64,000 bases of DNA. It comes from a virus (Duplodnaviria; Caudoviricetes). The first letter of the stretch is position 1. Every line of letters starts with the position of its first letter. The notes under the pieces were generated by a model that was not told the DNA's origin, searched no databases, and saw only the letters and a program-made list of their open reading frames with translations. The stretch is taken from IMG/VR virus record IMGVR_UViG_3300032954_000011, positions 1,757-65,756 of that record; one strand, written 5' to 3'. Below are positions 38,116 through 53,329 of this stretch, in pieces. A program made the position numbers and the translations under genes.

Positions 38116-38126
38116 TTAGAGGGGGA

Positions 38127-38312
38127 TTAAATCAGGATGTAGGAGATGTCAACGGGGTCGTCGTGTTGGGCGCGCCACGGGACTACGGGCGGGCGAAAGG
38201 GGCGGAAAGGGTCTGGGCAGCGGTGCGCCCCACAATTCCGGCAAACTCCACAGCGCGGACAAATATCCGGGTTGTCGCAACAACAGTTACACTTGTGCTT
38301 TCGGGTTCTCAA
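38127..38312 (-). CDS. Small Cys-rich protein
   Basis: CNCCC...CPRCGVCRNCG. Confidence 0.45.
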   Translation of the reverse strand: MRTRKHKCNCCCDNPDICPRCGVCRNCGAHRCPDPFRPFRPPVVPWRAQHDDPVDISYILI

Positions 38313-38557
38313 TTCAGTCTCGCTTTCTCTTTCTCAGACGGGCGCCGGGGGCCCACATAAAGCACCAGCACCACCTTTGAACTCCCGGGGTCCCAGAAGC
38401 TCCAGATTACCGGGGAGGTGCGCTTCCAGTCGAGGTCTTGCGCGATAATCCCGTCAACGCGGGCCTCAAGCTGATGGAGAGTTTGCTCTGTAAACTTCTT
38501 TAGTCGGAACGAAAATTGCCGCAGTTCCTCGGGTGCCGAGGGTGTGTAGAGAATCAT
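38309..38557 (-). CDS. Hypothetical protein
   Basis: Contiguous ORF. Confidence 0.5.
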   Translation of the reverse strand: MILYTPSAPEELRQFSFRLKKFTEQTLHQLEARVDGIIAQDLDWKRTSPVIWSFWDPGSSKVVLVLYVGPRRPSEKEKARLN

Positions 38558-39232
38558 CTAGGCCTCCATCACCGAAAGCTCGTTTAGGCAGCGGAACTTC
38601 GTGCCTTCCTCGGTCAATACCATGTCAACGTGGTAGTGCCCGAAGAACCATTTCTTGGGCTTGTGCGCATCGAACATCGCCTGAAGCGCCTCGCCGGTGG
38701 CGGTCTTGTGCAGGCCCACCTCCCGCTTATAGCGCAGATAGGCCTCGTCTTTGGTCCGCACGCCGTCGTCGGTCGGGCACGGCTCATGCGTTCCCACCAC
38801 CAGTTGCGACAGCACCTTACCCGCAATCAGATAGGGCGCCTCATGGGTCACCACAATCTCGGGCTTTACCTTGCAGTAAAGCTCATAGGCTGCATTCAGT
38901 TCGCGGAGGTTAAGCTGCTCATCGGGCCACCACGATAGCCCCGGTACGCGATACTTCCAGTCAATGCTCCACCCGCCGGCCACCCAGAACAGTCCCAGGT
39001 TCCCCCGAAAGCCGAAATCCCCGGCGTAGTTCGGGTGCTTTTGGCACACCTGGGGCTTGTCGTGGTTACCACGAAAGAACTGGTGGCGGTCTTCGAGCAC
39101 GGGGAGATAAACCTCCCTGAACCCCAAACCCATGTCACCTAGCTGTAAAGTCTCGGCCTCAGCCGGGAGCGCTACGAGCTTAGACAGGTAGTCGGGGATT
39201 TTTCCGTGCACATCTCCGATGATGTAGAGCAT
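38558..39232 (-). CDS. Metallophosphoesterase
   Basis: IGDVHG, LGDMG, RGNHD, VTHEAP, FGHYH. Confidence 0.9.
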   Translation of the reverse strand: MLYIIGDVHGKIPDYLSKLVALPAEAETLQLGDMGLGFREVYLPVLEDRHQFFRGNHDKPQVCQKHPNYAGDFGFRGNLGLFWVAGGWSIDWKYRVPGLSWWPDEQLNLRELNAAYELYCKVKPEIVVTHEAPYLIAGKVLSQLVVGTHEPCPTDDGVRTKDEAYLRYKREVGLHKTATGEALQAMFDAHKPKKWFFGHYHVDMVLTEEGTKFRCLNELSVMEA

Positions 39233-39489
39233 GGCGTGGCTACAACCTCCTCTAACTCAACAATCGAACCCCAGGGAATCACCAAAGGGTCTAACATGCC
39301 TTCGTTGCTCGGCGAGAAGCTCGTCGAAATAGTGACAAACTCCTCAGTGGCAGCGGCAACGAAACCAATGCTTTGAATTCTGGGGGGCTGATAGTTGTGG
39401 TGGGGGTCGTATTTCCAGCCGTGGCAACTTACTGAATCTAACCAAGTTAGCAGGACGAGCGTACCTCGTTCCAATTCGCGGGCTTGCAC
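39172..39489 (-). CDS. Conserved phage hypothetical protein
   Basis: W.DS...GW...SIGF...IP.G.I pattern; AAGGAG upstream. Confidence 0.6.
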   Translation of the reverse strand: MQARELERGTLVLLTWLDSVSCHGWKYDPHHNYQPPRIQSIGFVAAATEEFVTISTSFSPSNEGMLDPLVIPWGSIVELEEVVATPCSTSSEMCTEKSPTTCLSS

Positions 39490-39508
39490 TTTATGGGGGT
39501 CTCCTTTG

Positions 39509-39539
39509 CTTTAGACGGACGGGAAGGGGAAAACTTAAG
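39509..39539 (-). promoter_or_regulatory. Phage sigma-dependent promoter candidate
   Basis: CTTAAGTTTTC-N11-CGTCTAAAG, copy 2. Confidence 0.75.
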
Positions 39540-40434
39540 GCTTGCGAGAAATAAATCTGCCGCGGCGGTCGCGGCCATAGTAGAGAGGGTGGGCATAGTG
39601 ACGAGTGGCAGCAGGCGTGGGATAAAACGGGGGAAACACCGGCTTTCCGCCTGGTCCGAGGGGTGCAGGAGGCGGGGCAGGGGGCGCAGCCGTCGTCGTC
39701 ACCTCGGCCTCCCGAACCGCCGTCGCAAACTTTGAGGTGGCCAGGGTGGCTCCCTCTTTGCCCACAATGCGATAAAAGTAGCGCGAAATCTCTGAGGCGC
39801 CTAGCTCAATCCAGCCCGAGGTGGGCGGCTCCTCGTTAGGGGCGCAGCGCAGAATACAAAGCGACATGCAGCCCGTTGGGTACTTAAGGTGATGCGCGCG
39901 AAACTTCTCAGCAGACATGATGTGCCCGCAACACCCGGATTGAATGAAGCCAAAGTCTACGTGCGTGCGGCCATTCCAGCCGTCAGCGGTACGCTTAAAG
40001 GGGTCGAGAATCTTTCTGTCGGGGAGTTCGCCCCAGAAGAAGTTGAGTTTGTTGCCGCTGTGGCCCTGATTATGGTTGGGAAAGGTGGTTACGAGGCGCC
40101 AGCCCATTTCGGCGAAGCCCTGCTGTGTAGGGCGGTCGTTGTAGGAGTAGGTGGCGAAGGCGAAGCGCGTCGGGATGAAATCGTTGGTGGCAAGAGGTCT
40201 GACGCTTCTTGCACCGGAGCGCTGATAGTAGTAGCGGAGTTCCCACTCCGAATAATATTGGGGGTCAAGTTCGCGGCGTCTCTCCGGAGGAACCGGCGGC
40301 GGTACGTTGTAGTCCGGATACACATAGCGCCCCCCAAACCAGCCCCCGACATGTACCTCCGCCAAATCCGGGTACCAGAGGTAGGTTGGCAGGTCTAAAA
40401 CTGGCCGAATTTCCTGTGAAACTTCAGCGTCCAC
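39535..40434 (-). CDS. Hypothetical protein, paralog of 40424-41065
   Basis: Shares FAFAT..GW..N..GH.GN...FW..CCG. Confidence 0.55.
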   Translation of the reverse strand: MDAEVSQEIRPVLDLPTYLWYPDLAEVHVGGWFGGRYVYPDYNVPPPVPPERRRELDPQYYSEWELRYYYQRSGARSVRPLATNDFIPTRFAFATYSYNDRPTQQGFAEMGWRLVTTFPNHNQGHSGNKLNFFWGELPDRKILDPFKRTADGWNGRTHVDFGFIQSGCCGHIMSAEKFRAHHLKYPTGCMSLCILRCAPNEEPPTSGWIELGASEISRYFYRIVGKEGATLATSKFATAVREAEVTTTAAPPAPPPAPLGPGGKPVFPPFYPTPAATRHYAHPLYYGRDRRGRFISRKP

Positions 40435-41065
40435 GTTGCACCTTTACGAGCGTCGCAAACGCCGAGGTCGGGGAGGGTTCTTTTTCGCCCCGCGGCGGCG
40501 CCGAAGCCCGCACCCAAAACGAGTTTTTCTTGCCGCGGCCCAAAAGCTGCCAATGCCACCGGGCGAGAATCCGGGTCTTGGGCGGTTGAATCAGCAAGAT
40601 AATTCCTTTGTCGTCGAGGGCTTTTTTGCGGTCGGTGCGGAATCCGCCCCCGCAGCACCAGGTGAAGCGGCCGCCGTGGGCGGGACTACCTTTTTCTGGG
40701 TCCGGCCCCTTTGGGCGGGGCCCGTTCTGCGGAAACGCCTTCCACCAGAACGTTACCGCATTCCCGGTGACGTGTCCGCGCCAGTTGCCGCCGACGATGA
40801 TTTTTTCCCAGCCGAGCGTCTCTAGGGCTTTCGCGGCTCCGCGCTGCTCGGTGTTGGTGGTCGCGAACGCGAAGGGGTGTTTGATTTTCGCTTCGGCCTC
40901 GCGAATGTCGTCGATGAAGAGCTTCTTGCGCTCGGCATAAAGGCCGGTGTTCGGGTTGGGCTTGCCGTTGAAGTCAATTTCCACAAAGCTCTCCCCCATC
41001 CCGTATGCAAAGCTCCCGAACTCCGCAAGCTCGGACGTAACCGCTGCTGTTCGACTGTTGCTCAT
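40424..41065 (-). CDS. Hypothetical protein, GNAT-like motif
   Basis: FAFATTNTEQRGAAKALETLGW. Confidence 0.55.
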   Translation of the reverse strand: MSNSRTAAVTSELAEFGSFAYGMGESFVEIDFNGKPNPNTGLYAERKKLFIDDIREAEAKIKHPFAFATTNTEQRGAAKALETLGWEKIIVGGNWRGHVTGNAVTFWWKAFPQNGPRPKGPDPEKGSPAHGGRFTWCCGGGFRTDRKKALDDKGIILLIQPPKTRILARWHWQLLGRGKKNSFWVRASAPPRGEKEPSPTSAFATLVKVQRGR

Positions 41066-41802
41066 AGCTCCAGAGCCTCCCAACTTTCCCGCAAATCCAC
41101 CCCGGGGTCGCCCTGTAGGCGGCGCCGGCGCTCAAAAATCCTCTCCACCAACCGCCGCGCATCATCGTCGCGGTCGGCGTATCCGCGCGCAAACTCCTCT
41201 AGGTGTCGGAGTTCGAGTTGCGCCGGGAAGTCGTTGAGGCGGGCCGGGCGAAACGCAGCCAGCTTCGCCAACGTCAAGCAAACAAAGGCACTTAGCGGTC
41301 GGAACAACCAACTCGCCATCGCCCGGTACTCGTAATGGTTGTCGGCGCCGGAGGCCCGAACGTCCCCGAAGTGGCCGTAGCGCCCGCCATCGCGCCGGGC
41401 CTTCGATTCCGCTGAGGGGAGAATCTCTAAGTTTTCGAGGCTCAGGGTCAGCTTGTCGAGGGCGCCGGTTACGTGGTTCCGGTTCGCGGTGGCAATCGGC
41501 ATACCGAGGTGAACGTGGCCGCCGAGCGTTAGTCCAGGCCCCGCGACCGCCCCAGCCTTCCAGCGGTATTCGCGGATGGCCTGCGTGGCCTCGCCGTTTA
41601 GCAGCCGCTTCATTTGCCGCACCAGCGAATAGGCCTTGAATTTTGGGGCGGGCCGTAACTCCACAACCCGCCCCCCGTGGTCCGAACCCACCTCACCGTG
41701 GACGTGAGGAAAAAAGCGCTCCACGTTGATGATTCCGTTTCGCGGCCCCAGAGCCACGAACTCCGGGTCACACCCCAGTTGAAATTTGTTCAAGTACGGC
41801 AC
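41062..41802 (-). CDS. phiEco32-like COOH-NH2 ligase (amidoligase)
   Basis: LGCDPEF, VELRP, GGHVHLG, YGHFGDVR, YEYR. Confidence 0.8.
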   Translation of the reverse strand: MPYLNKFQLGCDPEFVALGPRNGIINVERFFPHVHGEVGSDHGGRVVELRPAPKFKAYSLVRQMKRLLNGEATQAIREYRWKAGAVAGPGLTLGGHVHLGMPIATANRNHVTGALDKLTLSLENLEILPSAESKARRDGGRYGHFGDVRASGADNHYEYRAMASWLFRPLSAFVCLTLAKLAAFRPARLNDFPAQLELRHLEEFARGYADRDDDARRLVERIFERRRRLQGDPGVDLRESWEALEL

Positions 41803-42310
41803 GGATTTTCTCCCTCAGCTTTTTTAGGCGTTGGCTGAGCGCCTGTTCGGAAATTTTTAGCTCGGCCGCGAGTTGGCGTTGGCGGCCGTTTTTGCGCGCC
41901 GAACTCCCGGCATGCGCCAGTAACAAACTTTTCACCAGTTGCTGTTCGGCGGGTTCGAGGCGGTCAAGGAGCTTGAGCAAGAGGTCGGAGTCTTCGAGGG
42001 AGACAAACTTTGACTCAACCGCGAAATCTAGATGCTCCAAGGGAACCTCAGCCCGCTGCTGTTGCTCGCGCAGAATATCCATGCAGGCATTGTGGGTGAT
42101 ACGATAGACCCAAGTTGAGAGGCGCGACTTCCCCTTAAAAGTGGGAAGCGCCAAAAGAATCTTCGTGGTGATGTCGGCGGCGATGTCGTCGTCGACGCGG
42201 TGGAGTTCGAACCAAACCCGAGAGCGAACCTTCTGGAAGATTTGATTTCGCAAATCCCAGAGGTTGTCGTCGGTGGGGTTGGCTACCCAGGTTGCGTGCG
42301 CGGTGTTCAT
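41768..42310 (-). CDS. ECF-type RNA polymerase sigma factor
   Basis: Region 2 FKGKSRLSTWVYRITHNACMDILR; region 4 HTH QLAAELKISEQALSQRL. Confidence 0.85.
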   Translation of the reverse strand: MNTAHATWVANPTDDNLWDLRNQIFQKVRSRVWFELHRVDDDIAADITTKILLALPTFKGKSRLSTWVYRITHNACMDILREQQQRAEVPLEHLDFAVESKFVSLEDSDLLLKLLDRLEPAEQQLVKSLLLAHAGSSARKNGRQRQLAAELKISEQALSQRLKKLREKIRAVLEQISTGV

Positions 42311-43083
42311 CGCCAGACCACCCGCCAACCTTGGGGGAGTATGGGTTCGATTATAGGTTGACGTTCGGGTCGCTGCGGGATTGGTTGCGCCGCAGGGGGC
42401 GGAACCTCGGCCGCGCCAGCTGCGGGCATAAAGGCCGCATTCTGAATCACCTCAAAACCCGGGTCCGGAAACTGGGGGTCAACCGCAACGATACCCGGCG
42501 CTGCACCCCGGACAGCCTGTTGGGCTTCTAGGTTATACCAACCGGCCTGCGGCGCGAGCGGTGGTGCCTCGCGTTCGACAGCGGGGCGGGCGTTCGCAAC
42601 TCGCCGTAGCTGTTCAACGGCCTCTTGTACACGGGGGTCTACCGGCAAAGGATTGGGGTCGGGCGGTCGGGGTCGCCGGGGCTGCCAAGCATACATCGCC
42701 ATCTGCGGGACGCGCCGCTGCCGGTTCCCGTTCGCATTCCGCACCCTGTCCGGCGTGTGCCCTATGAACTCTACATACTTATGCCACCAAAGGGAGCGCT
42801 TTAGGCGCACCCCCCGCAGCTCCCGGAACGCGTAAATATGCACCAACTCCCGCAAAACCGGGTGCCGCTGAACCGCATCCAGAACCGCGCGCCAATTCTT
42901 GACCTTTGTTCCCTCTAGTTGGTAGGCGGCGAGAAACTTCTTGATGTCCGACCACCGGGTGTAGACGGCGCGGCGGCGTCGCATTACCACCCGCGCATCC
43001 CCGTTATCATCTCGCTCGATTTGCCGAACCGGGGCCTCCCCCGGATTTTCGGCCAGCAAAATCAACCTCACCCTACTCGCCAT
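42307..43083 (-). CDS. Hypothetical protein with a Pro/Ala-rich C-terminus
   Basis: Coupled between the ATP-grasp and sigma genes. Confidence 0.55.
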   Translation of the reverse strand: MASRVRLILLAENPGEAPVRQIERDDNGDARVVMRRRRAVYTRWSDIKKFLAAYQLEGTKVKNWRAVLDAVQRHPVLRELVHIYAFRELRGVRLKRSLWWHKYVEFIGHTPDRVRNANGNRQRRVPQMAMYAWQPRRPRPPDPNPLPVDPRVQEAVEQLRRVANARPAVEREAPPLAPQAGWYNLEAQQAVRGAAPGIVAVDPQFPDPGFEVIQNAAFMPAAGAAEVPPPAAQPIPQRPERQPIIEPILPQGWRVVWR

Positions 43084-43813
43084 TGTCGCCCTTTCGCTTG
43101 GGGAAGTTGAGCTTCACCCAGTTTGCGATTTTGTCCGCGAGCGCCTGAATCACCTGCCGCCCGGGGCCCTCGACGCCGGGGGCCGAGTTGACCTCCAGCA
43201 CGTAGCAGTGGCCATCGGTGCCGAGTAGCACGTCTACCGCGCCAAAGTCCAGCCCCAAAGCCTCGACAGCGCGACAGGCCAAATCAATGGATTCGCGGTT
43301 GAGGCGTTCGGCCGGGACGAGCTGGAACGCATATCCGTTCCGGTAGCTGCGCCCGAAACGCTTGGTGCCGAACCTCCGCACCTTGACCTTCTCGTAGCTG
43401 CCGAGGTGCCGGCGCCGATAGACGAACACCCGAAATTCGGTGCGGGACGGAACGATTTGGGTGAAGAAATCTTGTGTGGCAAGTCGGGCTGCGGCGAAAT
43501 CTCGACAATAGCGAATATCGCGACCAGCGTGGTGGTGGAAGCGCCGCGACAGCACCGGGGGTCGCAGAGCCTGTAGGGCGCGGCTAAACGGAACGGTCCG
43601 CACCCCTGCCCCCGAAAGCGCCTCAAGTTCCTGAAACTTGTTCCGTCCCCCAACTCGGGCGTTGAGCGCCGGGAGTTTCCCCCCGTAGCGCACCCCATAG
43701 CTCACCACTGCCTGGGGATTCCCGCCGCCGAGCGCCAAACCCCTCTCGCGCAGCAAATCCGCCAACACCCGTCCGGTGGGGCGACTGCCCCGTGCGACCA
43801 AAAGTTGAATCAT
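43073..43813 (-). CDS. ATP-grasp (RimK-like) peptide ligase
   Basis: EFRVFV, ALGLDFGAVD, VLEVNSAPG. Confidence 0.88.
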   Translation of the reverse strand: MIQLLVARGSRPTGRVLADLLRERGLALGGGNPQAVVSYGVRYGGKLPALNARVGGRNKFQELEALSGAGVRTVPFSRALQALRPPVLSRRFHHHAGRDIRYCRDFAAARLATQDFFTQIVPSRTEFRVFVYRRRHLGSYEKVKVRRFGTKRFGRSYRNGYAFQLVPAERLNRESIDLACRAVEALGLDFGAVDVLLGTDGHCYVLEVNSAPGVEGPGRQVIQALADKIANWVKLNFPKRKGDNGE

Positions 43814-43826
43814 CGGCGTTCTCCTG

Positions 43827-44828
43827 TTACTTCTTGCGAATCTTTGAGGCGTTAATCACGCCGGTCGCCAGGTTCGCCCCGCACTTAATACAATACCACC
43901 GATTCAGTGGGGTGTTGCGGTCGGCGAGCTTGAACAGAAACACCACCCGACAATTCGGGTTTGGACAAAGCTGCCGCTCCTGGGGCATGCGTTCCTCGTT
44001 CACCTCAGTGTTGAAGCGGCGCTGACGCTCCTCGTAAAACTCATGCACCCGCGTGTAGGTAGGTTGTGTAAACTGGTATGCGGTTTTGAAATCCGCATAA
44101 TGTTCCAGGCCGTCGGGGCCGAAAATGTAGGCTTGGTCGTTCGCCATGGTGAGGTAGGCGAGGTCGAGTTTCTGTTGCTGAAACGGCAGGCCGTGTTGGT
44201 AAATCCATGGCCGCATGGCCTTGTGAATCAAGTGCTTTTCACTGGCGAACACCAGCTTTTCGCCGTTGTTGTAGGTGGCCATAACCACCGGCGAGCCGGA
44301 GCGCGCCAACAGCACGGTGTCCGGATACTTCTCGGAAATCGCGCACATCGCCACTGAGCCCGAGACGCGATTCAGAGTGCGAACCGCCTTTAGAGTGAGG
44401 CCGTCCTGGGCCACGATGGCCCGCAAAATATCGGAGTCAGTCTCGGCCACCCTCTCTGCGTGCAGCTCCCGAAACAGAGTATCGTCATTGTGAATCACCC
44501 CGTTGTGGACCACCGCGTTGATTTCGTCCCACATTGGGTGGTTGTTGACGTTTTTGCGCGGCGAACCCTTGGTGGCTGCCCGGGTGTGCACCATCGCGAA
44601 CCACGTGTGGTCGTCTAAATTGTCTTCTAGAAACTCGGTGTAGCTGGGCCGATTCACCAGCAGGTTTGCCGGGCAGTCCTCCTTGAGAACCTTGATGCCG
44701 TCGGCCCCATAGAGTGCGATACCGGTGGCGTCGTTTCCGCGATGCTCCAGCCCCAGCAGCAGCCCCCGAATCTGATACTCTTCGATGGGACCGCCTTTAT
44801 ACCGCCTGATTCCTCCAATTCCACACAT
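43827..44828 (-). CDS. Class II glutamine amidotransferase with a C-terminal zinc ribbon
   Basis: MCGIGG, RG.DATG, HTRAAT.G, NNHP, HNGVI, TDSD, FASE. Confidence 0.9.
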   Translation of the reverse strand: MCGIGGIRRYKGGPIEEYQIRGLLLGLEHRGNDATGIALYGADGIKVLKEDCPANLLVNRPSYTEFLEDNLDDHTWFAMVHTRAATKGSPRKNVNNHPMWDEINAVVHNGVIHNDDTLFRELHAERVAETDSDILRAIVAQDGLTLKAVRTLNRVSGSVAMCAISEKYPDTVLLARSGSPVVMATYNNGEKLVFASEKHLIHKAMRPWIYQHGLPFQQQKLDLAYLTMANDQAYIFGPDGLEHYADFKTAYQFTQPTYTRVHEFYEERQRRFNTEVNEERMPQERQLCPNPNCRVVFLFKLADRNTPLNRWYCIKCGANLATGVINASKIRKK

Positions 44829-44841
44829 TGGCCTCACCCCC

Positions 44842-46356
44842 TTAGATTTGAGCGATTATACTCCCATACAACTTTTTCGGCTCGACAGGGGGCTTCTTGG
44901 CCCACTCCGCCGCGGCCGCCTCGGTTTCGCTGCCCGCCTCCCACAACGGCAGCAAACCCGAAGTCAAAACCTTTCTCACCCGCCCCACATACGGCCCTGC
45001 CAAAACCCCCTTGCCGAACAAAATCCCATTATAGTCGCCCCCGCTGCGCACCGCAACCTTCGCATGGTCGGTGAGCGTCTCGCTTAGAGCCTCGGGGAGT
45101 TTCGGGGCGCGCTTTGCCCAATAGGGACTCACGTAGACATAGTCCCCTTCACGTCCCACCGACAGCACCAGCTCCGCCCCCTCTAGGCCCACAATGCTCC
45201 AACACAGCTCTCCGATGCCCGGTTGGACGCGGGTATGGGTGCGGCGCATCAACGGGAAAAAGGGCGGCTTGGTCTGATGATAATACTTCCAGAAGCCCCA
45301 CACGTTCCAGGGATTCGTGGGAATCGGTCGGGCCAATGACAGATAATCAAAGAGTTGTTGGCGCTCGATTTCGCGCCCCGCAATCATATCCGGCACCACC
45401 AAACCTTTTGGGATTGGGGCAGCCACCAAAATCCGCTCCTTGATAGAGCCGGCGCCCCCGATGCCCCAGGGAGTGCGAAAATCATTGGTATATTGGGGCG
45501 GCGGAAACCCATGAAGTTGAAGTCCCCGCAGTGCCAGCGCCGCATCGTCGTCACGGCCCTTGAAGTAGGCCAGCAAATTGAGAATGGTTTGCTGCGCCAC
45601 CCGCTGCGTCGCATCGAGCCGAACGGCCAGCGCCAGGTGCGGCTGCACCACCGCCAGCTTCGAGAGCACCAACGACACGTAGGCAGATAGCGGCGATGCC
45701 AACCAACTCGGGAACGAGCGGTATTCGTAGCCGTGGGCCTGGGCGCGAACGTCACCGCGGCGCCCGTAGGGCGTGGCGGAGGCTCGCGCAGCGGCCTCCT
45801 TTGCGTCGAAAACCCCCGCCGCACACATCAAAATCATCATGTTGTCGAGGGCCCGGACTTCATTGGGTTGGTCGTGTTTGCGCTTTCGCCCAAAGTGAAC
45901 GTGCCCCCCAAGGCCGTCGTGGCCGTCGTAGGCCCCGCACCGCCAGTGAAACTTGAGGCACTCCGGGACAAACTCCGCCATGGCCCGCAGCTCGGCCAAA
46001 ATACTCGCCACAGTATCAAGACAGAAGCGGCTTGCGGTGGGGCGCAGCTCGGCAATCCGCCCGCAGTTGTCGGCCCCAAACGCCAAGCCGGCTTGTAGGC
46101 CGCAGTTTTCAGCGTTTACTTTGTGGCCGTCGCTGTCGAAGAAACTGAACTCTGGGTCGGCCCCCACCGCAAAGTGATTCAGGAGCCTCGGCGCTGCCGG
46201 AATCAGACTAAAGGCTTTGGGCTGCCAGAACTTCGCCTGCCACTCATCGAGCTGCTGACGGGGAACCTCCAACGGAGTTGAGAGCTTCGACCAATGGGGG
46301 ACGCCCTCAACCGCCATGGCGAGGCGAAACGCGGATTTTTGCTCCTTAAAGCTCAT
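44842..46356 (-). CDS. phiEco32-like COOH-NH2 ligase (amidoligase)
   Basis: VGADPEF, AELRP, GGHVHFG, YGRRGDVR, GYEYRS. Confidence 0.82.
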   Translation of the reverse strand: MSFKEQKSAFRLAMAVEGVPHWSKLSTPLEVPRQQLDEWQAKFWQPKAFSLIPAAPRLLNHFAVGADPEFSFFDSDGHKVNAENCGLQAGLAFGADNCGRIAELRPTASRFCLDTVASILAELRAMAEFVPECLKFHWRCGAYDGHDGLGGHVHFGRKRKHDQPNEVRALDNMMILMCAAGVFDAKEAAARASATPYGRRGDVRAQAHGYEYRSFPSWLASPLSAYVSLVLSKLAVVQPHLALAVRLDATQRVAQQTILNLLAYFKGRDDDAALALRGLQLHGFPPPQYTNDFRTPWGIGGAGSIKERILVAAPIPKGLVVPDMIAGREIERQQLFDYLSLARPIPTNPWNVWGFWKYYHQTKPPFFPLMRRTHTRVQPGIGELCWSIVGLEGAELVLSVGREGDYVYVSPYWAKRAPKLPEALSETLTDHAKVAVRSGGDYNGILFGKGVLAGPYVGRVRKVLTSGLLPLWEAGSETEAAAAEWAKKPPVEPKKLYGSIIAQI

Positions 46357-46850
46357 GGATGTGTCTCAATCGGAACAGCTTTATAGTAGGCGAGGTGCGT
46401 CACAGCATCGCGCCCAAACCCGAAACTCGTTTTGAGGCCCCGGGTTGGATAGAGACCATTTAGAAGGCCCCGGTCACTTAAATCCGGGTGATAAATCTCA
46501 CGCAGCGGCCCTATCCACGATTTGTTGGGCAGGCTTCCCGGCAAGCCAAACTGCTTGCCCGACGGAATCCAGCCCAAGCACCGAATGTCGACAAGATTTT
46601 TCCGGTCGATTTCGGCGGCGATGTAGGAGCCAATCCGCCCACGAATACAACGGTCAAGCCCAGAGTAGGCGAGATTTTGGGGCGGTTTGCCAAAGTAGGT
46701 CTGGTATTGGCGAAGTTGGCCTTTTGGCGCAACCTCCCAAATCAATACCAGTCGCGTGGGGTATTTGCCCGGAAAGGGGCAGGGCTCGGGGTCGCGCCGG
46801 TGCGGGCCACAAACAATTTTTAGGGCTTCCTGGAGAGTCCAGTGTTTCAC
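46353..46850 (-). CDS. Hypothetical protein
   Basis: Coupled ORF. Confidence 0.5.
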   Translation of the reverse strand: MKHWTLQEALKIVCGPHRRDPEPCPFPGKYPTRLVLIWEVAPKGQLRQYQTYFGKPPQNLAYSGLDRCIRGRIGSYIAAEIDRKNLVDIRCLGWIPSGKQFGLPGSLPNKSWIGPLREIYHPDLSDRGLLNGLYPTRGLKTSFGFGRDAVTHLAYYKAVPIETHP

Positions 46851-47058
46851 GGCTCAACCTCTACATCATGTCTTTCAAACGACGTGCACGGCGAATTCTC
46901 TATTTCTGGTGGCAAGAACATGGCGCAGGTTAACTTTTTGGTGCAATTTCGACAACGATAGACCTTTAGTCCGCAGTAGCCTAATGGGTGCCCGACATTG
47001 TGGTAGCAGTCCTCGCTAAACCAGTCGTGTTTTCTCGCACTGCCGGCCTTTGGGTCGC

Positions 47059-47652
47059 TCATCGTTCCCCCAACGTCGCCTTCACTCCCGAAACCGCCGC
47101 ATTGAATCGCGCCCGGTGCTGCGAAAACCAATTAAACATCCAGTCTTGCTGGCACTGTTCGCTGCACAGAAGCGCCCCCCACTTTTTGCGCCGGGTATGC
47201 TTACCGCAGACAATACACTCTTGGGTCTTCACGACCGACTTTAGTGCCTTTACCGTCAGTTTCGCGCACAGCGGATTGTTGCGGAAATGTTCGGCACGAA
47301 ACTCCTTTGAGTGACCGTTGCAGCCGCACACTCGGCACTGGCAAAAGGCCGCCCCGGCCTCGTATCGGCTACCCGTCCAGAAGCGATACTCGGCGAACGG
47401 AAGGTAGCCGCGGGGGTTTTCTTTCATTCCCGCGCCTGATGCCGGAGTGTGGACCATTCGTCGCCCCACCCAGCGCCCAGACTCATCCCAACAGCTTTGG
47501 ACCTCCGGGGTGACGCGGGCTGGATAAGCCGGTGGCACCCACGGTTCGACGTATTTGACGAGCTTTTTGTAGCGCCGGCCCGGGGTGCGGGCGAACATGG
47601 TGCGGAAGACCCAGTTTGGGGGCCAGAGTTTCACGGGCGACCCCCACGCCAC
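47059..47652 (-). CDS. Zinc-finger hypothetical protein
   Basis: CRVC, CIVC, CSEQC. Confidence 0.55.
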   Translation of the reverse strand: MAWGSPVKLWPPNWVFRTMFARTPGRRYKKLVKYVEPWVPPAYPARVTPEVQSCWDESGRWVGRRMVHTPASGAGMKENPRGYLPFAEYRFWTGSRYEAGAAFCQCRVCGCNGHSKEFRAEHFRNNPLCAKLTVKALKSVVKTQECIVCGKHTRRKKWGALLCSEQCQQDWMFNWFSQHRARFNAAVSGVKATLGER

Positions 47653-47852
47653 AACGCCTTCCGGCGCCGCCAGATATGTCTCCGACGCGCCTCGACAAGC
47701 TCGTTGACGGCTTGGTCAATAGCAAAGTTCATCGCCTTGCTCGCAAACAGGGGGATTGGTTCCCCCCGCAGAAAGCGCAGCGCATAAAACTTCGCTCGTA
47801 ACAGTTTCCGCATCTCAGCTCCCCCACCCAAACCAACTTTGTTCGTGGTCAT
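47631..47852 (-). CDS. Hypothetical protein
   Basis: Contiguous ORF. Confidence 0.4.
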   Translation of the reverse strand: MTTNKVGLGGGAEMRKLLRAKFYALRFLRGEPIPLFASKAMNFAIDQAVNELVEARRRHIWRRRKALWRGGRP

Positions 47853-48006
47853 GCTGATAGTGTTTCTCCAGCATGTCTAACACTTTCCGGGCGCTCCGGC
47901 AAAGCGCACAATCAGCGCCACATTCGTGTCTCACCACCATCGCGGCGGTCGCAAGAACCTTTACGCGCTTTAGAAACTTCGCTTTGCGCTCAACCTTCTT
48001 CGACAT
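47815..48006 (-). CDS. Small hypothetical protein
   Basis: GGAG RBS; HEC..DC.LC. Confidence 0.5.
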   Translation of the reverse strand: MSKKVERKAKFLKRVKVLATAAMVVRHECGADCALCRSARKVLDMLEKHYQHDHEQSWFGWGS

Positions 48007-48029
48007 TCTCGCGCTCCCCCGCTCAAAAT

Positions 48030-49195
48030 TTTAGGCCGATGTAGGCATCGCCCTACCAGCTCTGCACATCGGCCCACGGGCAGCTTCCTTTATGGAGGCC
48101 CCGGCAGTTGCCTGCCGGGTGCTGCCATCGTCTGACGCTTCGGCCAAGTAAATTGGCGCTGCGCACCCTACCTCCTCTGTGAGCCTACTCGGTCGAACAA
48201 GTCCTTTGGACCCACAAAGCTCTAGAGTTCAAGATTGTAGGCATAAACCCGCCCACAACTCAAACAAACCCAAAAAAGCAGCGGATAATGGCGGCACCAG
48301 CCCCCACACCCGCAGCGGCACCACCCACGCTTCCGGCGGCGCCAGAACTTCAGCGAATTCCAGAGTCGTCGCATAAACTCTAACCTCGGCGAAAACCAAC
48401 CAATCGCAGGTTAGTTTCCAACCACGGGGTCCCAAACGAAGGCGGATACAAAGGCACTTTATGCTTGTTTGAATGGGACTAGCGGCCCCCGACGGACCCC
48501 CACCGGATGGAGGGAGTACGCTGAGTCTAAGTTTGCCACAAGACCCGAAGGCAATGGGCAAACCAATTACCGAACGCTGGTTGACCACTAAAGGTCAAGC
48601 GCCCAGTAAGACTCATAGTAAAAAGGACCCCAATCGCCCACAGAGGCACAAAGTTATGCCAAAGCAGCCCCCTTTGCCTGTTACCCTATCTGATACCCCT
48701 GAGAACCGTTTCCAGCCCCAGGCCCGTCGAGCCAACCAGGGTTATCATGTCACGGTGCGTATCCCCTGTTTGGTGGCTTTCGCCGAGGAACTTTTGTGCG
48801 CGAATGTTCGCGCCGAATTGGTCGGGCGCAGCACAAATAGTTGCCCATTGGCTTGGGTCTAGAAGGCTGCGCCCTAAAAAGCGAGGTTCAAGGTACCAAC
48901 GAGAAAAGTTGGCCCCCGAAGGCCCGCCCAGCGCGAAGGTAGCGACCGGAGGCTTTTCAGGCGACTCGGCCGAACTTCGCGACATCAGAGACATTCGGTG
49001 CGGATTACAGCCGCATCTATGAGCGCACACACGCCCACGGGGCCCTGCCCCTAGCGCGATGTCTTCTGATGTTAGGTGGGCGCGCGTTGTCGCGCCCCAC
49101 CTATCCTGACGTTCAGCCCACTGCGCGGCAGCAGAGCGTCCGCGCATGCGCCCATTACAGACTAGGGCGAACCAGGAGCCCGCAGTGCGAAGGCT
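48030..49195 (-). ncRNA. Putative large (~1.2 kb) structured RNA
   Basis: Dense nested helices; GNRA/UUCG loops on the - strand; no long credible ORF. Confidence 0.55.
48222..48374 (-). CDS. 50-aa Cys-rich basic peptide inside the structured region
   Basis: MRRLWNSLKFWRRRKRGWCRCGCGGWCRHYPLLFWVCLSCGRVYAYNLEL; GAGG upstream. Confidence 0.5.
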   Translation of the reverse strand: MRRLWNSLKFWRRRKRGWCRCGCGGWCRHYPLLFWVCLSCGRVYAYNLEL

Positions 49196-49348
49196 AGCCC
49201 ACCACCCCCGCAGAATCTCCATCGTTCGGCCACATTTCGGCCGTCGCAAACACCTCACACCCGCACATTTGCCAGGCCGCGTGCCAGCACTTACAGCCCG
49301 GGCAGCGCTCCATAGGAATCACCTCACCCCCGGCTGTGTCGTCGCGCT

Positions 49349-49732
49349 CTAGCACATCGCTAGGATATTCAAGCGTCTCCAGTAGTCGGGTGTGTCGAAT
49401 TCCGGCTCCGACTGGTCCGCTTGTGTCTGCTGGCAAGGCGAGCATGTTCGTGTCCCCCTTCGATGGTCAATAATGGTGTAGCCGTCGCGGCGGGTTATGT
49501 TTGTAGGAACCGGCATCGCTGGGGTGCGCGGTGGCATTTTTCGGTGCGCAAAGCACCTTAAGGCCCCCTCACAGACCCACCCGCCCGGGCGCCCACAAAA
49601 ACAGGTTTCCCCCTCTACCACTCGCCCCGAACCCCCGCACACATGACAAACGGGGTCCAGGAGTTGGGCGAGTTCGTTTACGCACTGGCGCCCCCGGCAG
49701 GCCGGGCACAAAGTTAGGTGCAAATCGTCCAT
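49349..49732 (-). CDS. Zinc-finger protein (CxxCxG repeats)
   Basis: CPACRG, CHVCGGSG. Confidence 0.55.
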   Translation of the reverse strand: MDDLHLTLCPACRGRQCVNELAQLLDPVCHVCGGSGRVVEGETCFCGRPGGWVCEGALRCFAHRKMPPRTPAMPVPTNITRRDGYTIIDHRRGTRTCSPCQQTQADQSEPEFDTPDYWRRLNILAMC

Positions 49733-50982
49733 GCGAGTCTCCGCCCTTGGTCACAGTAGAGGTTGTGTGCACCGTAAAGCTGCCAGTTTGTGGCGATGGC
49801 TTTGGGGTCACGCACCACGGTTTCGAGTCCGTAGAGGCCGGTGTTGTAGGCTTTCTCGGCGTGCCGCTCAGTCCATACCGCCGAAGCCTGCCCCATTGTC
49901 CGGACAAACATCCCGTGGTTGCGCTGCAAAATCTCCCGCGCCCTTTTTACGTCGCAGTGGTTGATGGTCTCCACCACCTCCAGGGGCTCGGCTTGCCACA
50001 GCCGCCACAGCTTCGAGGCCCCCAACATCGCACACATCCGGGCCATGTCGAACACACAGTGCGCCAACCAGGGGGCGCGCAGCCAAAAATTCGAGAGCGT
50101 TCGGTATTCCAGGCCGTGGGTGGGGAGGCGGAATTCGCCTGCCCGCCCATAGTATCGCCGCCTCACTGGGGAGTCGAAGTTCGCGGCCGCCCCAACCGCC
50201 CAGACGCTGAGAATCGCATCGAGCGCAAAAACCATATCGTGGCGGGTGCGCACCGGGTGCGCGGTGGCGAGGTGTACGTGGCCCCCCGCGAACCGTTGCA
50301 GAAGCTTCGAGCCGTCCGTAACCGGCTCGCCTGGCATGTCGTAGAGGTTTAGGCTGGGGTCGCACCCCAGCATTTGGAATTCCGGGGGCGCCGACGCCAT
50401 CAATTCCGGGGGAATCTCCACCACGCTGTCCGCCGACAGCGTGGCTGTGGGGTCGAGGTCGCGGGCGGTGGCCAAGATTTCATTCAGCCCATCAGCGATG
50501 TGGCTGACAAGAACCTCATTGCAGCCGAAGCCCGTTTCAGGGGTGTATTCGGCCTGAAAGCCGTCGGCGAAGATGGTTCCGGAATAGAAGCGATAAGGCG
50601 TCTTGTCGATGCGGCGGGGGTTGGCCTTCCCGGGCAGAAACCTCCAAGCCGGCAGCAGGGCGCCGGTCCCGCTGCGCAAAAAGATTTCCGGGTCGGAGCC
50701 GGTGGTGGGGTAGCCCCCTCTGTTCGGCGAGGGCTTTTGAAGCACCGCGCGGAGCGCAACGGCGTCGGCAGTGATTCGTTCGAGGTCCGTTCGGGTTGGT
50801 TCGGCGGGGGTCATTTGGCCGGCGAACTTTTGCGACGGCCATACGTCCCAGCCGCGGGGGGTCTGGGTGAGAAAAGTCCCACAGTCGTTCCCCATTTCGA
50901 TAACCAGGCCCTGTTTGGTCTGTAGCCATTCGTTGTGCACGAAAAGTTCCTCCCCTCTAGTCCACCCACATCGGCCGCGCAA
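49714..50982 (-). CDS. phiEco32-like COOH-NH2 ligase type 2
   Basis: GSDPEIF, DGFQAE, GCDP..N.Y, RFAGGHVH, RR.YYGRAGEFR..HGLEYRTLSNFW; start uncertain. Confidence 0.88.
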   Translation of the reverse strand: MRGRCGWTRGEELFVHNEWLQTKQGLVIEMGNDCGTFLTQTPRGWDVWPSQKFAGQMTPAEPTRTDLERITADAVALRAVLQKPSPNRGGYPTTGSDPEIFLRSGTGALLPAWRFLPGKANPRRIDKTPYRFYSGTIFADGFQAEYTPETGFGCNEVLVSHIADGLNEILATARDLDPTATLSADSVVEIPPELMASAPPEFQMLGCDPSLNLYDMPGEPVTDGSKLLQRFAGGHVHLATAHPVRTRHDMVFALDAILSVWAVGAAANFDSPVRRRYYGRAGEFRLPTHGLEYRTLSNFWLRAPWLAHCVFDMARMCAMLGASKLWRLWQAEPLEVVETINHCDVKRAREILQRNHGMFVRTMGQASAVWTERHAEKAYNTGLYGLETVVRDPKAIATNWQLYGAHNLYCDQGRRLAWTICT

Positions 50983-51208
50983 CCACCGGCAGTTCCTGGG
51001 TATCGTCTTCGCTGGCCGCCTGTAGGCAAGGTTCCTGCTCTATCCCGTGGCACTTCATACAAATCCACATGAACACCGTTTTGCCCCCGCTGTCACCGAA
51101 GCGGCACTGGTGGGTGCCGATTAGCTCCATTTCGCCGCCGCACCCCTGTTTGCTACAGGGTTTGAGCTGGCGAAGGGAGGTTGGGTGCGTAACTGAGTGC
51201 TGGGTCAT
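50957..51208 (-). CDS. Small zinc-ribbon protein
   Basis: C..GCGG...CMKC; GGAG RBS. Confidence 0.5.
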   Translation of the reverse strand: MTQHSVTHPTSLRQLKPCSKQGCGGEMELIGTHQCRFGDSGGKTVFMWICMKCHGIEQEPCLQAASEDDTQELPVVARPMWVD

Positions 51209-51410
51209 TCGTCTTCTCCCACAGCCCGCAAAAACTCAATGGGCCAGCGCCACCGCAAAACCGAGCACGGCCGATAGCCGTAGCCCTTTATGCGATACAG
51301 AAAGCCCCTTTGGGTCATGAAGTCAGCCCCCCGGAACTCCTCTTGGGGGCCGTCGCCAGTCGCAATCATAAAGGGTGGGCGAACTTTTTTCAACTTTTTT
51401 CGACCTTTTG

Positions 51411-51441
51411 CTTAAGTTTTCGTTGCGCCGAACGTCTAAAG
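51411..51441 (+). promoter_or_regulatory. Phage sigma-dependent promoter candidate, antisense to early genes
   Basis: CTTAAGTTTTC-N11-CGTCTAAAG, copy 3. Confidence 0.7.
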
Positions 51442-51691
51442 CCTATGAAGGCTTTAGTCCATGGGGGCGGGTTTTTGGTGCCGCTGTTGATTCTAAAGGG
51501 GTTAGTCGAGCGGATAGCTTGGGGCGTCGGCCGTGCCCTTGTGCATGCGTTCCCAAGCACCAGGTGGACACCTTGGACAAGTCCCTTTGTAGGGCGCCTT
51601 TACGGGGGCGCCGCAGTATGGGCAGCGAAATTTTGTCCGGCGAGGCCGCCGCATGCGCCGCATACCGCCCACAGCCATTAGCATACTCATA

Positions 51692-51910
51692 TCAGTCCTT
51701 GTCGGCCCAGAGATGCAGTTCTGGGCCTTTTTCTTTACTCTGGAGTTCGACCGCCCATAGGGGGCTAGTTCCCCCCACGAAAATCTCTGTGTCGGCAGAA
51801 ATCTGACCCAGGGCTAGCGCCTGTTGGAGCGCGATTAGCACGCGGCCAACGGTGAGTGGGAGGCCGCTGGCAAGGTGCTGGCGCGGTTCGAGTTTGGGGG
51901 TTTCGCTCAC
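51692..51910 (-). CDS. Hypothetical early protein
   Basis: Contiguous ORF. Confidence 0.5.
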   Translation of the reverse strand: MSETPKLEPRQHLASGLPLTVGRVLIALQQALALGQISADTEIFVGGTSPLWAVELQSKEKGPELHLWADKD

Positions 51911-51911
51911 T

Positions 51912-52382
51912 TTAGCTCTCGTCCTCGAGTTTTTCGAGGCGCTGGAGGAAGTCGGGGCAGACTTTTAGGATGAACTCCGCCGTCTCCCCGTAACTGCCCA
52001 CCGTTGAGACTATCCGCGCCGTTAACTCTTTGAGGTCCTCGGTGCGCTTTTGGGTAGCGGCTTCCTGGGCGCGGAAATCGTCGAGTGCTTGAAGGGTACT
52101 CTCCAAAGCTTTTCCTTCCGCATTGACAAAGTGGCCATGTCGGCTGCGAATGTATTTGGCGTATTTTTGGGCAGCCAGAAGTACGGCCTTTTCGAGTTCT
52201 TCGCGTTTGTTCACTTTGGGGGCCTCCTCAACCAAACGTAACGATGTCTCTGCACACAACACTGGGTTCAAGTAATACGAAAATTGCACCCACCACCACG
52301 GCTTTGCGGTCGCACCAGCGTCTACGATACGGCCTTCTCCGAAGCCCGAGTTTGTGTGCCAAACTTTGTCCCCAATCTTCAT
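51912..52382 (-). CDS. Hypothetical early protein (SH3-like N-terminus)
   Basis: MKIGDKVWH..FGEGRIV; GAGG RBS. Confidence 0.6.
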   Translation of the reverse strand: MKIGDKVWHTNSGFGEGRIVDAGATAKPWWWVQFSYYLNPVLCAETSLRLVEEAPKVNKREELEKAVLLAAQKYAKYIRSRHGHFVNAEGKALESTLQALDDFRAQEAATQKRTEDLKELTARIVSTVGSYGETAEFILKVCPDFLQRLEKLEDES

Positions 52383-52466
52383 GTCACCACCTCAGCATCA
52401 GCGCCAACAGAATCCAACACAGCGCCATCAAAAGAGTTTCCCGGGGGTCGTGGAGATGGAATTTCA

Positions 52467-52862
52467 TTAATTCTTCCCGGTGAGTAGGCTCAACAGCCCC
52501 GTAAAGGCGTAGTATTCCGGGTTGAAGAGGCGGAGCGCACCGGCAAACAGTCCGGTGCTCGAAACCAGCACCCCTAGGCCTAGGAAGCAGGACGCAACGA
52601 ACCAAGGTTCGGAGTCCCCGATTGTACTGCTTGGGTACTTGGGGTCGGGCTTCGAAAGTTCCATACCCCGCGAAGCGCAGCAGTACATACAGTAGCCCAG
52701 CACCATCACAAGGGACATGCCCAGCCCCAGAAACACATATCCCTCAGCCCGCGCCTGCCGTATCAGCACCGGCCAGAGGTGCTGGGCAGCCACGCCCAGC
52801 TTCGACGCCAGCATGTCGAGGCGGTCGAGAAGCTCCTTTGGCACATCAACCTGCGTTTGCAT
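52467..52862 (-). CDS. Two-TM membrane protein
   Basis: AAGGAGG RBS; two hydrophobic segments. Confidence 0.65.
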   Translation of the reverse strand: MQTQVDVPKELLDRLDMLASKLGVAAQHLWPVLIRQARAEGYVFLGLGMSLVMVLGYCMYCCASRGMELSKPDPKYPSSTIGDSEPWFVASCFLGLGVLVSSTGLFAGALRLFNPEYYAFTGLLSLLTGKN

Positions 52863-52871
52863 AAAACCTCC

Positions 52872-53096
52872 TTATTCGTCGTCCCTCACCGCCCGCAAGA
52901 GTTCTTCGCCCTCTGGCGGGCAGTAAATCACCTGAAAAAGCGTTTCTTCGGCGCCCTCCGGCGCCCCAGGACTCACCACGCGAAGATTCTTGGTGCGCTT
53001 CGCCACAAACGTGGCGCCCGACAACAGCACCTCGCGGAAGCGCCGTTCGCGCTCCTCTAGGGTGCGGAATTCTTCGCAAACCGAATCAAGGTGCAT
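52872..53096 (-). CDS. Hypothetical protein
   Basis: Contiguous ORF. Confidence 0.5.
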   Translation of the reverse strand: MHLDSVCEEFRTLEERERRFREVLLSGATFVAKRTKNLRVVSPGAPEGAEETLFQVIYCPPEGEELLRAVRDDE

Positions 53097-53329
53097 TTCA
53101 GCCCCCTAGAAGGTCACGCCCCCACAGGAATTTTCGTCAAAGTCGCGTGCCGCCTGCGGATAGAGCTTTTCGAGGCAGCCTTCAGAGCATACCGCCGCCG
53201 ACATCAAAACGTCTATCCAGCGGGTTTTGCGCCCACACGCACACTGGCACTCGGCGATGGTTTTCATCAAACCGGGCCGCCCGGGCATCTCAACGAGCAT
53301 CGGGGCGTGCGGATATTGTTCGTCGAAGG

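Follow-up and report, generated by a model that had tools for sequence, protein, structure and literature searches.

What is encoded in positions 48030-49195 of this phage genome? A sequence-only reading had seen there no long credible open reading frame (ORF) and many nested helices, and had proposed a new large phage noncoding RNA of about 1.2 kb, comparable in scale to GOLLD and ROOL. The window, by which we mean the whole 64,000-nt stretch of DNA that was analysed, is nearly all of a 65,756-bp IMG/VR virus record in which direct terminal repeats are present. The phage encodes an SU10-type portal, a terminase and a family-A DNA polymerase that carries a fused UDG domain, and it has phiEco32-type genes for COOH-NH2 ligase and amidotransferase; the cluster to which these ligases belong has stayed unexplained since its first description in phiEco32-like phages. 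Close relatives of the phage were found neither by blastn against a phage collection nor by searching viral contigs with two neighbouring proteins.

Results

Gene neighbourhood and coding content

The structured stretch is part of the minus-strand arm, with the following genes around it.

49714-50982, minus strand: COOH-NH2 ligase, 422 aa, on the upstream side of the stretch
49349-49732, minus strand: cysteine-rich (zinc-finger) protein, 127 aa, on the upstream side
49194-49313: 39-aa CxxC ORF with a good SD, at the edge of the stretch
47815-48006, minus strand: small gene, 63 aa, on the downstream side
47631-47852, minus strand: small gene, on the downstream side
Between the small genes and the second ligase: 197-aa protein (p197), on the downstream side
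44842-46356, minus strand: second ligase, on the downstream side
43827-44837, minus strand: amidotransferase, on the downstream side

The longest minus-strand ORF of the stretch (48686-49258, 190 aa) overlaps the conserved RNA described below; it gave zero Pfam or PHROG matches, and a search of 5.8 billion predicted proteins returned neither a relative nor an entry for the ORF itself. GC content by codon position is nearly flat across 47980-49480 (spread mostly ≤0.15), whereas the ligase gene at 49714-50982 has a spread of 0.25-0.45. With an ORF lacking homologues and a flat codon-position signal, the claim that the stretch holds no long credible ORF stands. A naive map of ORF gaps fails to flag 48030-49195, since spurious G+C-rich ORFs cover the region.

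Folding of the stretch

The minus strand of 48030-49195 reaches a minimum free energy of −570.7 kcal/mol and the plus strand one of −459.5 kcal/mol, which against 40 dinucleotide shuffles corresponds to z-scores of −7.3 and −5.1, so that the dense structure read from the letters comes with a clear excess of stability on the minus strand. We divide the stretch into three parts.

48795-49193, minus strand: 5′ flank D1, about 400 nt, folding into stable hairpins and a multi-branched structure (z −4.26)
48384-48788, minus strand: conserved structured RNA domain D2, 405 nt, a "type 1" member by profile and covariance-model matches (z −7.08)
48030-48383, minus strand: 3′ flank D3, about 350 nt (z −4.14)

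Each part was compared with 100 shuffles, and for all three parts no shuffle folds as well. A sliding scan of 38000-53000 (100 segments of 300 nt, 15 shuffles each) yields ten consecutive segments from 47600 to 48950 that all have z between −1.2 and −4.6, forming a contiguous over-structured block of about 47600-49250; the coding background scatters around 0, and seven isolated segments in it reach z ≤ −3. The nine helices named in the sequence-only reading fared unequally, six having a pair probability of at least 0.6 and three being left unused by the ensemble. The GCAA, GAAA and UUCG loops described for the minus strand are present.

48034-42/48066-74, 48100-07/48112-19, 48522-28/48609-15: named helices in the high-probability set
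48581-86/48593-98, 48982-94/49059-72, 49073-80/49096-103: the rest of that set
48174-81/48639-46, 48426-32/48625-31, 48664-69/48865-70: named helices unused by the ensemble, simply complementary stretches

A family of relatives

Eighty viral loci were gathered through alignment of ligase homologues, and 20 of them keep the gene order ligase ... p197, second ligase, amidotransferase. Plain nhmmer and blastn searches of the 80 loci with a 1.26-kb query found nothing significant, and when the regions that follow the ligase were compared all-versus-all by blastn, none matched the window. In one locus (L030) the gap after the ligase is gene-poor with a z of about −3 and, when used as an nhmmer --max query, it reveals an element of about 400 nt in five others (L021, L015, L036, L044, L011). 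A profile of these six relatives, built without the window, matches window positions 48793-48633 with an E-value of 9.1e-07, the match beginning exactly at the P1 helix of D2, and the same profile also matches L019, L016, L032, L038 and L031. A covariance model (R1) of 16 relatives, likewise without the window, matches 48631-48774 with 43 bits (E 1.4e-07) over its full length (1-162), the best of four matches in 746 kb; R1 is nearly a sequence model, RNAalifold having given only seven pairs on its MAFFT alignment, and MAFFT misaligns the 3′ half of full-length members.

Members measure 276-429 nt, the shortest being that of L031 with 276 nt. A motif pattern returned five loci from 2.9 million viral contigs, all already known, and 29 stretches from metagenome contigs, 13 of which pass the profile at E ≤0.01 (nine strong); its 19 stretches in 185,579 species genomes include no genuine member. 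Core anatomy and the covariance model identify two further divergent members, L089 and L099. Three candidates (L121, L112, L115) were rejected as they look like coding sequence. The family is detected only in uncultured phage or metagenome contigs, from soil and sediment.

A second group of loci (L002, L003, L005, L006/L007, L012, L013, L037), which we call type 2, has the outer plan of type 1 with the central motifs absent. The plan consists of an S1 that reads AACGC.., a hairpin 27-30 nt later, a GGACACA that follows S1 by 199-245 nt, and a closing duplex; the hairpin is present in six of the seven loci examined, among which the duplicate L007 is not counted, and the pattern found none in L037. 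Elements occur in 19 of the 20 syntenic viral loci (11 of type 1 and 8 of type 2), the sole exception being L039, where none was seen.

Anatomy of D2

From the outside in, D2 is built of a 14-bp closing helix, P1, followed by two helices around a near-symmetric loop (GANAC / G[CG]ANAC), an inner three-way junction that holds the GGCYC...GGGCC hairpin and a hairpin with a GNRA cap, and innermost a coaxial stack Py-Pw-Px, in which the CCUCUGUGGGC and CC..UAAACAAG strands flank a variable insert. The parts are as follows.

48788-48793, minus strand: AAGUUC at the 5′ edge of P1, A-AGUU(C/U) in relatives, read by eye
48775-48788, minus strand: P1 5′ strand CCUCGGCGAAAGCC, pairing with 48384-48397 in a 14-bp helix (pair probability 1.00)
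48755-48763, minus strand: S1 motif GAUACGCAC, consensus GANAC-RSRC; forms the 5′ side of a conserved internal loop, from alignments
48691-48747, minus strand: three-way junction containing H2
48721-48733, minus strand: H2 hairpin GGCUC-GAC-GGGCC, almost invariant among the family members, from alignment columns and pair probabilities
48647-48653, minus strand: Py 5′ strand
48636-48646, minus strand: M1 motif CCUCUGUGGGC, directly after the Py 5′ strand
48631-48635, minus strand: Px 5′ strand GAUUG
48482-48630, minus strand: variable insert within Px, 149 nt with several hairpins, 9-158 nt in relatives
48477-48481, minus strand: Px 3′ strand UAGUC, then CC
48464-48474, minus strand: M2 motif AUUCAAACAAG, whose ACA pairs with the UGU of M1
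48457-48463, minus strand: Py 3′ strand CAUAAAG
48403-48419, minus strand: S5 motif GGAAAC, then CCUGCGAU; consensus G[CG]ANAC ... CUGCGAU, partly from by-eye comparison with relatives
48384-48397, minus strand: P1 3′ strand GGUUUUCGCCGAGG, pairing with 48775-48788

All elements of the type-1 plan are thus located in the window, namely P1, S1, the GGCYC..GGGCC hairpin, the series Py-CCUCUGUGGGC-Px...Px′-CC..UAAACAAG-Py′, and S5. The invariant alignment columns of H2 are G56, C58, G65, G66 and C68. Judging from the letters, the AAGUUC at the edge of P1 is a possible processing or start signal. A pairing of AAGUU with an AACUU before Py was considered and dropped, as by eye it is lost in L044 and L036.

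One of the three unused helices, 48174-81/48639-46, would engage the conserved CCUCUGUG motif, and the relatives lend it no support, so that this part of the sequence-only reading falls. The pairing of M1 with 48174-48184, in which 11 of 11 pairs form, we attribute to chance: if G-U pairs are admitted, the window has about nine equally good sites, their totals are of the same order as those for shuffled motifs, and the relatives have no matching site.

Pairing and covariation among members

Is the fold maintained when the sequence changes? In all of the 12 members compared, the ends meet in a helix of 11-16 bp that has a different sequence each time and encloses 276-429 nt. The outer duplex of P1 and Pv has a mean energy of −38.9 kcal/mol with a member's own partner strand and −21.7 kcal/mol (sd 4.7) with swapped partners, and none of 240 swaps reaches the own mean. 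Here Pv denotes the pairing of the bases that directly precede GANAC with those that directly follow G[CG]ANAC, and Pz the helix CUUYGYU/GGCRRAG; these two helices are more weakly supported, by RNAalifold on the profile alignment and by a lenient swap test, which allowed the strands to slide widely (P1 itself scores 9.94 against 8.58 of 10 in it). For the closing duplex of type 2, the corresponding energies are −34.0 kcal/mol (own) and −17.4 kcal/mol (swapped), with one of 42 swaps reaching the weakest own value.

The core gives the clearest picture. The order Py(7)-CCUCUGUGGGC-Px(5)...insert of 9-158 nt...Px′(5)-CC..UAAACAAG-Py′(7) is found in 21 of 21 sequences, 17 of them distinct. At fixed positions a core forms 14.18 of 15 pairs with its own partner, compared with 9.71 (sd 1.81) with that of another member. 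When the 17 distinct cores are aligned with MAFFT, 94.8% of the cells for 17 pairs are paired, a count that uses the majority Px columns and scores the window as mispaired there; with the window's own Px columns the figure is 81%, and 47.8% for helix 4, MAFFT having put the window's Px 3′ strand elsewhere. Both-sided changes are seen at 14 of the 17 pairs. The covariation score is 0.697 against 0.218 (sd 0.025) for shuffled alignments, none of 500 being as high, and is at most 0.132 when the partners are slid. The pair between M1 and M2 switches jointly, from UGU/ACA to UAG/CUA in L021, L114, L015, L031 and the divergent L099, and to UGG/CCA in L019. Since G-U pairs occur at several core positions, the RNA strand can be assigned to the gene strand.

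With covariation among the relatives this strong, we have little doubt that D2 is a real conserved structured RNA. One could nevertheless suppose that there is no RNA gene at all, and that the stretch consists of tiny protein genes or decayed coding sequence with hairpins arising from G+C-rich composition; phage early regions are rich in tiny genes, and two small ORFs lie at the edges (39 aa with CxxC at 49194-49313, 37 aa at 48053-48166). However, covariation preserves the pairing while the sequence changes, the insert lengths between conserved blocks (9-158 nt) are not restricted to multiples of three, no ORF is common to the members, and no protein homologue is found. For D2 the supposition is already contradicted, and we find it hardly credible.

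Genomic position

On the strand that also carries the COOH-NH2 ligase and zinc-finger genes, the element comes after these two and before the second ligase and the amidotransferase. Synteny counts from viral contigs are biased, the family having been gathered partly via the ligase gene, and the unbiased part consists of seven metagenome contigs. All seven metagenome contigs with enough flank have a ligase homologue upstream of the element, on its strand; p197 follows in all five of the seven whose downstream reach is adequate, and in four of those five the second ligase, the amidotransferase and p246 follow as well.

Directly upstream, a gene for a small cysteine-rich protein is present in 12 of 12 loci examined, of both types. 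This zinc-finger protein has ten invariant columns, seven of them cysteines (CPxC...CxxCxG...C.R...C...C), and is called the eight-cysteine protein; six of ten sequences give sub-threshold matches to the DnaJ CXXCXGXG domain. In relatives the upstream gene has its own stop codon, by eye 0-10 nt before the element. Right after the element come short ORFs that vary from phage to phage and do not resemble those of the window. Genes for tRNA stand immediately after the element in L038 and L089 only, two of 30 loci scanned.

In cultured phiEco32-like phages the ligase is distant, at most 31% identical (302 records), and a gap of this kind was not found; the cultured phage ECBP2 has none at the corresponding place. 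A 650-nt gap in MW202615 was rejected as a member, being A+T-rich and without a match. The element is under selection at the level of RNA, on the gene strand, at a fixed place after the ligase and zinc-finger genes.

The flanks and the extent of the RNA

Does the conserved RNA extend over the full 1.2 kb? Relatives of D1 and D3 were not found by nhmmer --max over about 2 Mb of related phage DNA (D1 gave only its self-match). D3 contains the following features.

48272-48316, minus strand: terminator-like two-tier hairpin GCUGCGGGU...AUCCGCUGC, then UUUUUU (pair probability 0.98-1.00)
48234-48263, minus strand: sigma-70-like promoter match TTGAGT-18-TACAAT, a consensus match at 9/12 positions
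48030-48233, minus strand: 3′-most part, with hairpins 48100-48119 and 48033-48075, leading into the 63-aa gene
48053-48166, minus strand: possible 37-aa ORF behind GAGGAGG, in the 3′-most part

The terminator-like hairpin is absent from the consensus scan, since its loop exceeds 8 nt, and was found by a separate scan. Because D3 carries both this hairpin and a promoter-like site, the stretch looks composite rather than like one molecule of GOLLD/ROOL scale, and the flanks are probably lineage-specific accessory hairpins, a terminator, and the promoter and leader of the next gene. One could instead imagine a single RNA of 1.2 kb, with D1-D3 as domains, that has grown in this phage from an ancestral core of about 400 nt. 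Each of the three parts folds better than its shuffles, the over-structured block is contiguous in the scan, no credible gene separates D1 from D2, and the element of L003 also lies within a gene-poor stretch, of 793 nt with z of −3.4 to −3.7. Yet neither flank has relatives, P1 closes D2 on itself just as in the complete elements of relatives without such flanks, and the terminator-like hairpin with its six U and the promoter-like site fall inside D3; we therefore hold the single long molecule to be quite unlikely. Of the "new large phage ncRNA" that had been proposed, what survives is that it is new, noncoding, structured, on the minus strand, covarying and outside Rfam. What is not supported is the extent: the unit for which conservation is seen measures 405 nt here and 276-429 nt in relatives.

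Comparison with RNA databases and the literature

A whole-window cmscan at Rfam gathering thresholds reports only a tRNA. Over 47500-49700, Rfam 15 gives, at E up to 10, three unrelated chance-level matches (E 1.7-5.2) far below their gathering scores, and the loci of six relatives give nothing at E up to 1, so that the region is without a match to any Rfam family. Models for GOLLD, ROOL, OLE, HEARO and raiA match neither the window nor 47500-49700 (we take ROOL to be Rfam RF03087 and GOLLD to be RF01998). Signatures of group I or II introns or of RNase P, which had not been found by reading the letters, are not found by the Rfam models either; a group I or II intron was rejected on this ground and also because the upstream gene has its own stop and the downstream ORFs are unrelated. 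RNase P RNA, tmRNA and 6S RNA have no Rfam match at E up to 10, and ARAGORN finds no tmRNA. In the literature we found no paper linking phiEco32 with noncoding RNA; the available portions of the COOH-NH2 ligase papers mention no RNA, and titles and abstracts of GOLLD/ROOL papers and of structured-RNA surveys contain nothing alike. D2 is a member of a previously uncatalogued RNA family.

Discussion

Our analysis suggests that the locus encodes a 405-nt folded noncoding RNA, belonging to an uncatalogued family in a clade of uncultured phiEco32-like short-tailed phages, and that this RNA acts in trans; for the statement as a whole we consider the chances evenly balanced. How might such an RNA work? 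It would be transcribed together with the upstream genes, and the end-to-end helix P1 would let it be cut out or stabilised, so that the released element could act as a stable trans-acting RNA. Its adjacency to the gene for the zinc-finger protein suggests that the two probably form a particle, which would serve the peptide-ligase module of the phage. We favour such a trans-acting RNA or particle because of the end-joining helix, the many conserved loops and the variable periphery, and because the downstream ORFs are not conserved and, in the window and in L036, the element is followed by a terminator. The size of the element and the tRNA genes directly after it in L038 and L089 were also counted toward a stable or trans role. 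Against it, a terminator-like hairpin follows the element in only two to three of 16 members. No dedicated promoter was found ahead of the element. Its position inside the operon would fit a cis-regulator too.

The main rival is indeed a cis-acting regulator, an unusually large riboswitch-like or protein-binding leader within the ligase operon, in which P1 would mask a ribosome-binding site or gate the small ORFs, p197, the second ligase and the amidotransferase in response to a pathway product or to the zinc-finger protein. The constant operon position, the gene strand and the failure to find an own promoter all agree with this, as do the last four bases of P1 (GAGG, 48384-48387), which sit 9 nt before an ATG at 48374, and the GGAGG-type sites that several relatives have in or just past the P1 3′ strand. 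Of 16 members, four have near the end of P1 an SD and start that open an ORF of 25 aa or more, compared with 11% of random positions, some P1 ends being misplaced in this count. However, with 276-429 nt and at least ten helices the element is larger than any riboswitch we know of; moreover, it is followed by short ORFs that are not the same from phage to phage and are unlike those of the window, where an ORF of 50 aa with many W, C and R crosses the terminator hairpin. On balance we regard cis regulation as possible but somewhat unlikely.

A ribozyme would read the same architecture differently, with the internal loops as an active site and either self-cleavage or processing at the AAGUU junction or a reaction in the ligase pathway. 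Covarying helices do hold conserved unpaired strands in place, GNRA-capped hairpins occur at one position in several members (by eye), and conserved sequence stands exactly at the 5′ boundary. No Rfam ribozyme family is similar, though, and binding of a protein or ligand would explain the conserved loops equally well, which makes catalysis very unlikely in our estimation.

Returning to the trans-acting RNA, we can ask how closely it is tied to its neighbours. The RNA may be a working part of the peptide-ligase machinery, as scaffold, substrate or sensor, or else a new class of riboswitch that responds to the product of the ligase pathway, a more specific proposal that we rate as unlikely though worth stating; in its machinery version the COOH-NH2 ligases, an ATP-grasp protein and the amidotransferase could act on the RNA or be organised by it, together with the zinc-finger protein. 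If either version is true, it would amount to a new class of RNA-protein system and give an experimental handle on the phiEco32-type amidoligase cluster. To our knowledge, large, conserved and intricately folded RNAs are rare, and to date every new class has opened up new biochemistry, be it ribozymes, riboswitches or RNA cages. For so few sequences, the covariation in the present family is unusually clean; a core of conserved unpaired strands is defined, and the genomic partners are fixed (an amidotransferase, a zinc-finger protein and two or three COOH-NH2 ligases), so that the role of the RNA and that of the ligase cluster gain a common testable entry point. The shortest member, L031 with 276 nt, is of a size that suits in vitro work and cryo-EM.

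How does the family compare with known systems? Like RNase P RNA, 6S RNA and tmRNA, its members have ends joined by a long helix, conserved core loops and variable peripheral inserts. As far as we know, its motifs (CCUCUGUGGGC, UAAACAAG, GGCYC...GGGCC) are not those of any of these three. In source and in kind of evidence it resembles the 8,495 structured RNA candidates of DNA viruses that Fremin, Bhatt and Kyrpides (2023; PMC10690425) drew from IMG/VR, which likewise come from intergenic regions of uncultured phages and show covariation. Since the candidates there are 29-151 nt long, the whole family of about 400 nt is not described among them; fragments of it could be present among the supplementary candidates. 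It also resembles ROOL and GOLLD, which are large, ornate, structured RNAs, carried mostly by phages or prophages, with many conserved helices and loops, sometimes beside tRNA genes, and which are reported to multimerise (10.1101/2024.12.08.627333). The new family differs from both in being smaller (276-429 nt), in its restriction to contigs of uncultured soil and sediment phages among those searched, in having no sequence or structure match to them, and in being tied to one operon position by COOH-NH2 ligase and zinc-finger genes.

Genes and small reading frames beside the RNA

The gene immediately 5' of the RNA, in the window and in 11 other loci, is always that of a small zinc-finger protein, and because of this constant position directly upstream we regard the protein as a candidate partner of the RNA. 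Ten columns are invariant between the window protein and its 11 counterparts, seven of them cysteines, and the protein gives sub-threshold matches to DnaJ CXXCXGXG and to Anti-TRAP-like. The reading frames considered here are:

49349-49732, minus strand: small conserved zinc-finger protein gene, whose counterparts immediately precede the RNA in the 11 other loci
49194-49313, minus strand: 39-aa ORF (MERCPGCKCWH...) with two CxxC/CxC pairs
48053-48166, minus strand: 37-aa ORF with a GTG start 6 nt past GAGGAGG

The 39-aa ORF has a strong GGTGAGGTGA site 6-7 nt upstream of its ATG. The listed 83-aa ORF that starts at 49445 (minus strand) shares 97 nt with the zinc-finger gene; the shorter, 39-aa frame is probably the real gene behind the listed one. 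The putative 37-aa ORF, which lies 3' of the sigma-70-like promoter match and overlaps two very stable hairpins, may be a gene or a leader.

Structure within and around the gene-free stretch

The genes of 63 aa and 73 aa that adjoin the RNA (47600-48030, minus strand) fall within scan windows at z of about -3.1 to -3.6 relative to shuffled sequence, and therefore the over-structured block continues into these annotated small ORFs. Elsewhere in the same arm, isolated folding windows with z <= -4 occur at 39200-39500, 50300-50600 and 52700-53150 (minus strand). Repeated within the 1.2-kb gene-free stretch are:

48999-49015 and 49149-49169, minus strand: two hairpins with loop CUGUAAU in D1, the structured 5' flank, both stems lying within the predicted fold
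48975, 48793 and 48350, minus strand: three copies of the sequence AAGUUC

Since the minus strand of the whole window carries 28 copies of AAGUUC and the plus strand 27, its number here is not by itself unusual. One copy marks the 5' edge of P1, the 14-bp helix joining both ends of the window's element, and there the relatives keep A-AGUU(C/U).

Loci of the relatives

Structured or tRNA-bearing sequence is seen beside the element in three relatives' loci:

L003, 11438-12230: gene-poor stretch of 793 nt, z -3.4 to -3.7
L038, 11901-11971: one tRNA gene, no isotype assigned, directly 3' of the element
L089, 4754-4938: tRNA-Leu and tRNA-Tyr directly 3' of the element

The L003 stretch holds an element of the related second group (type 2, ~316 nt) and about 400 nt more of structured sequence, a parallel to the extra flanks in the window.
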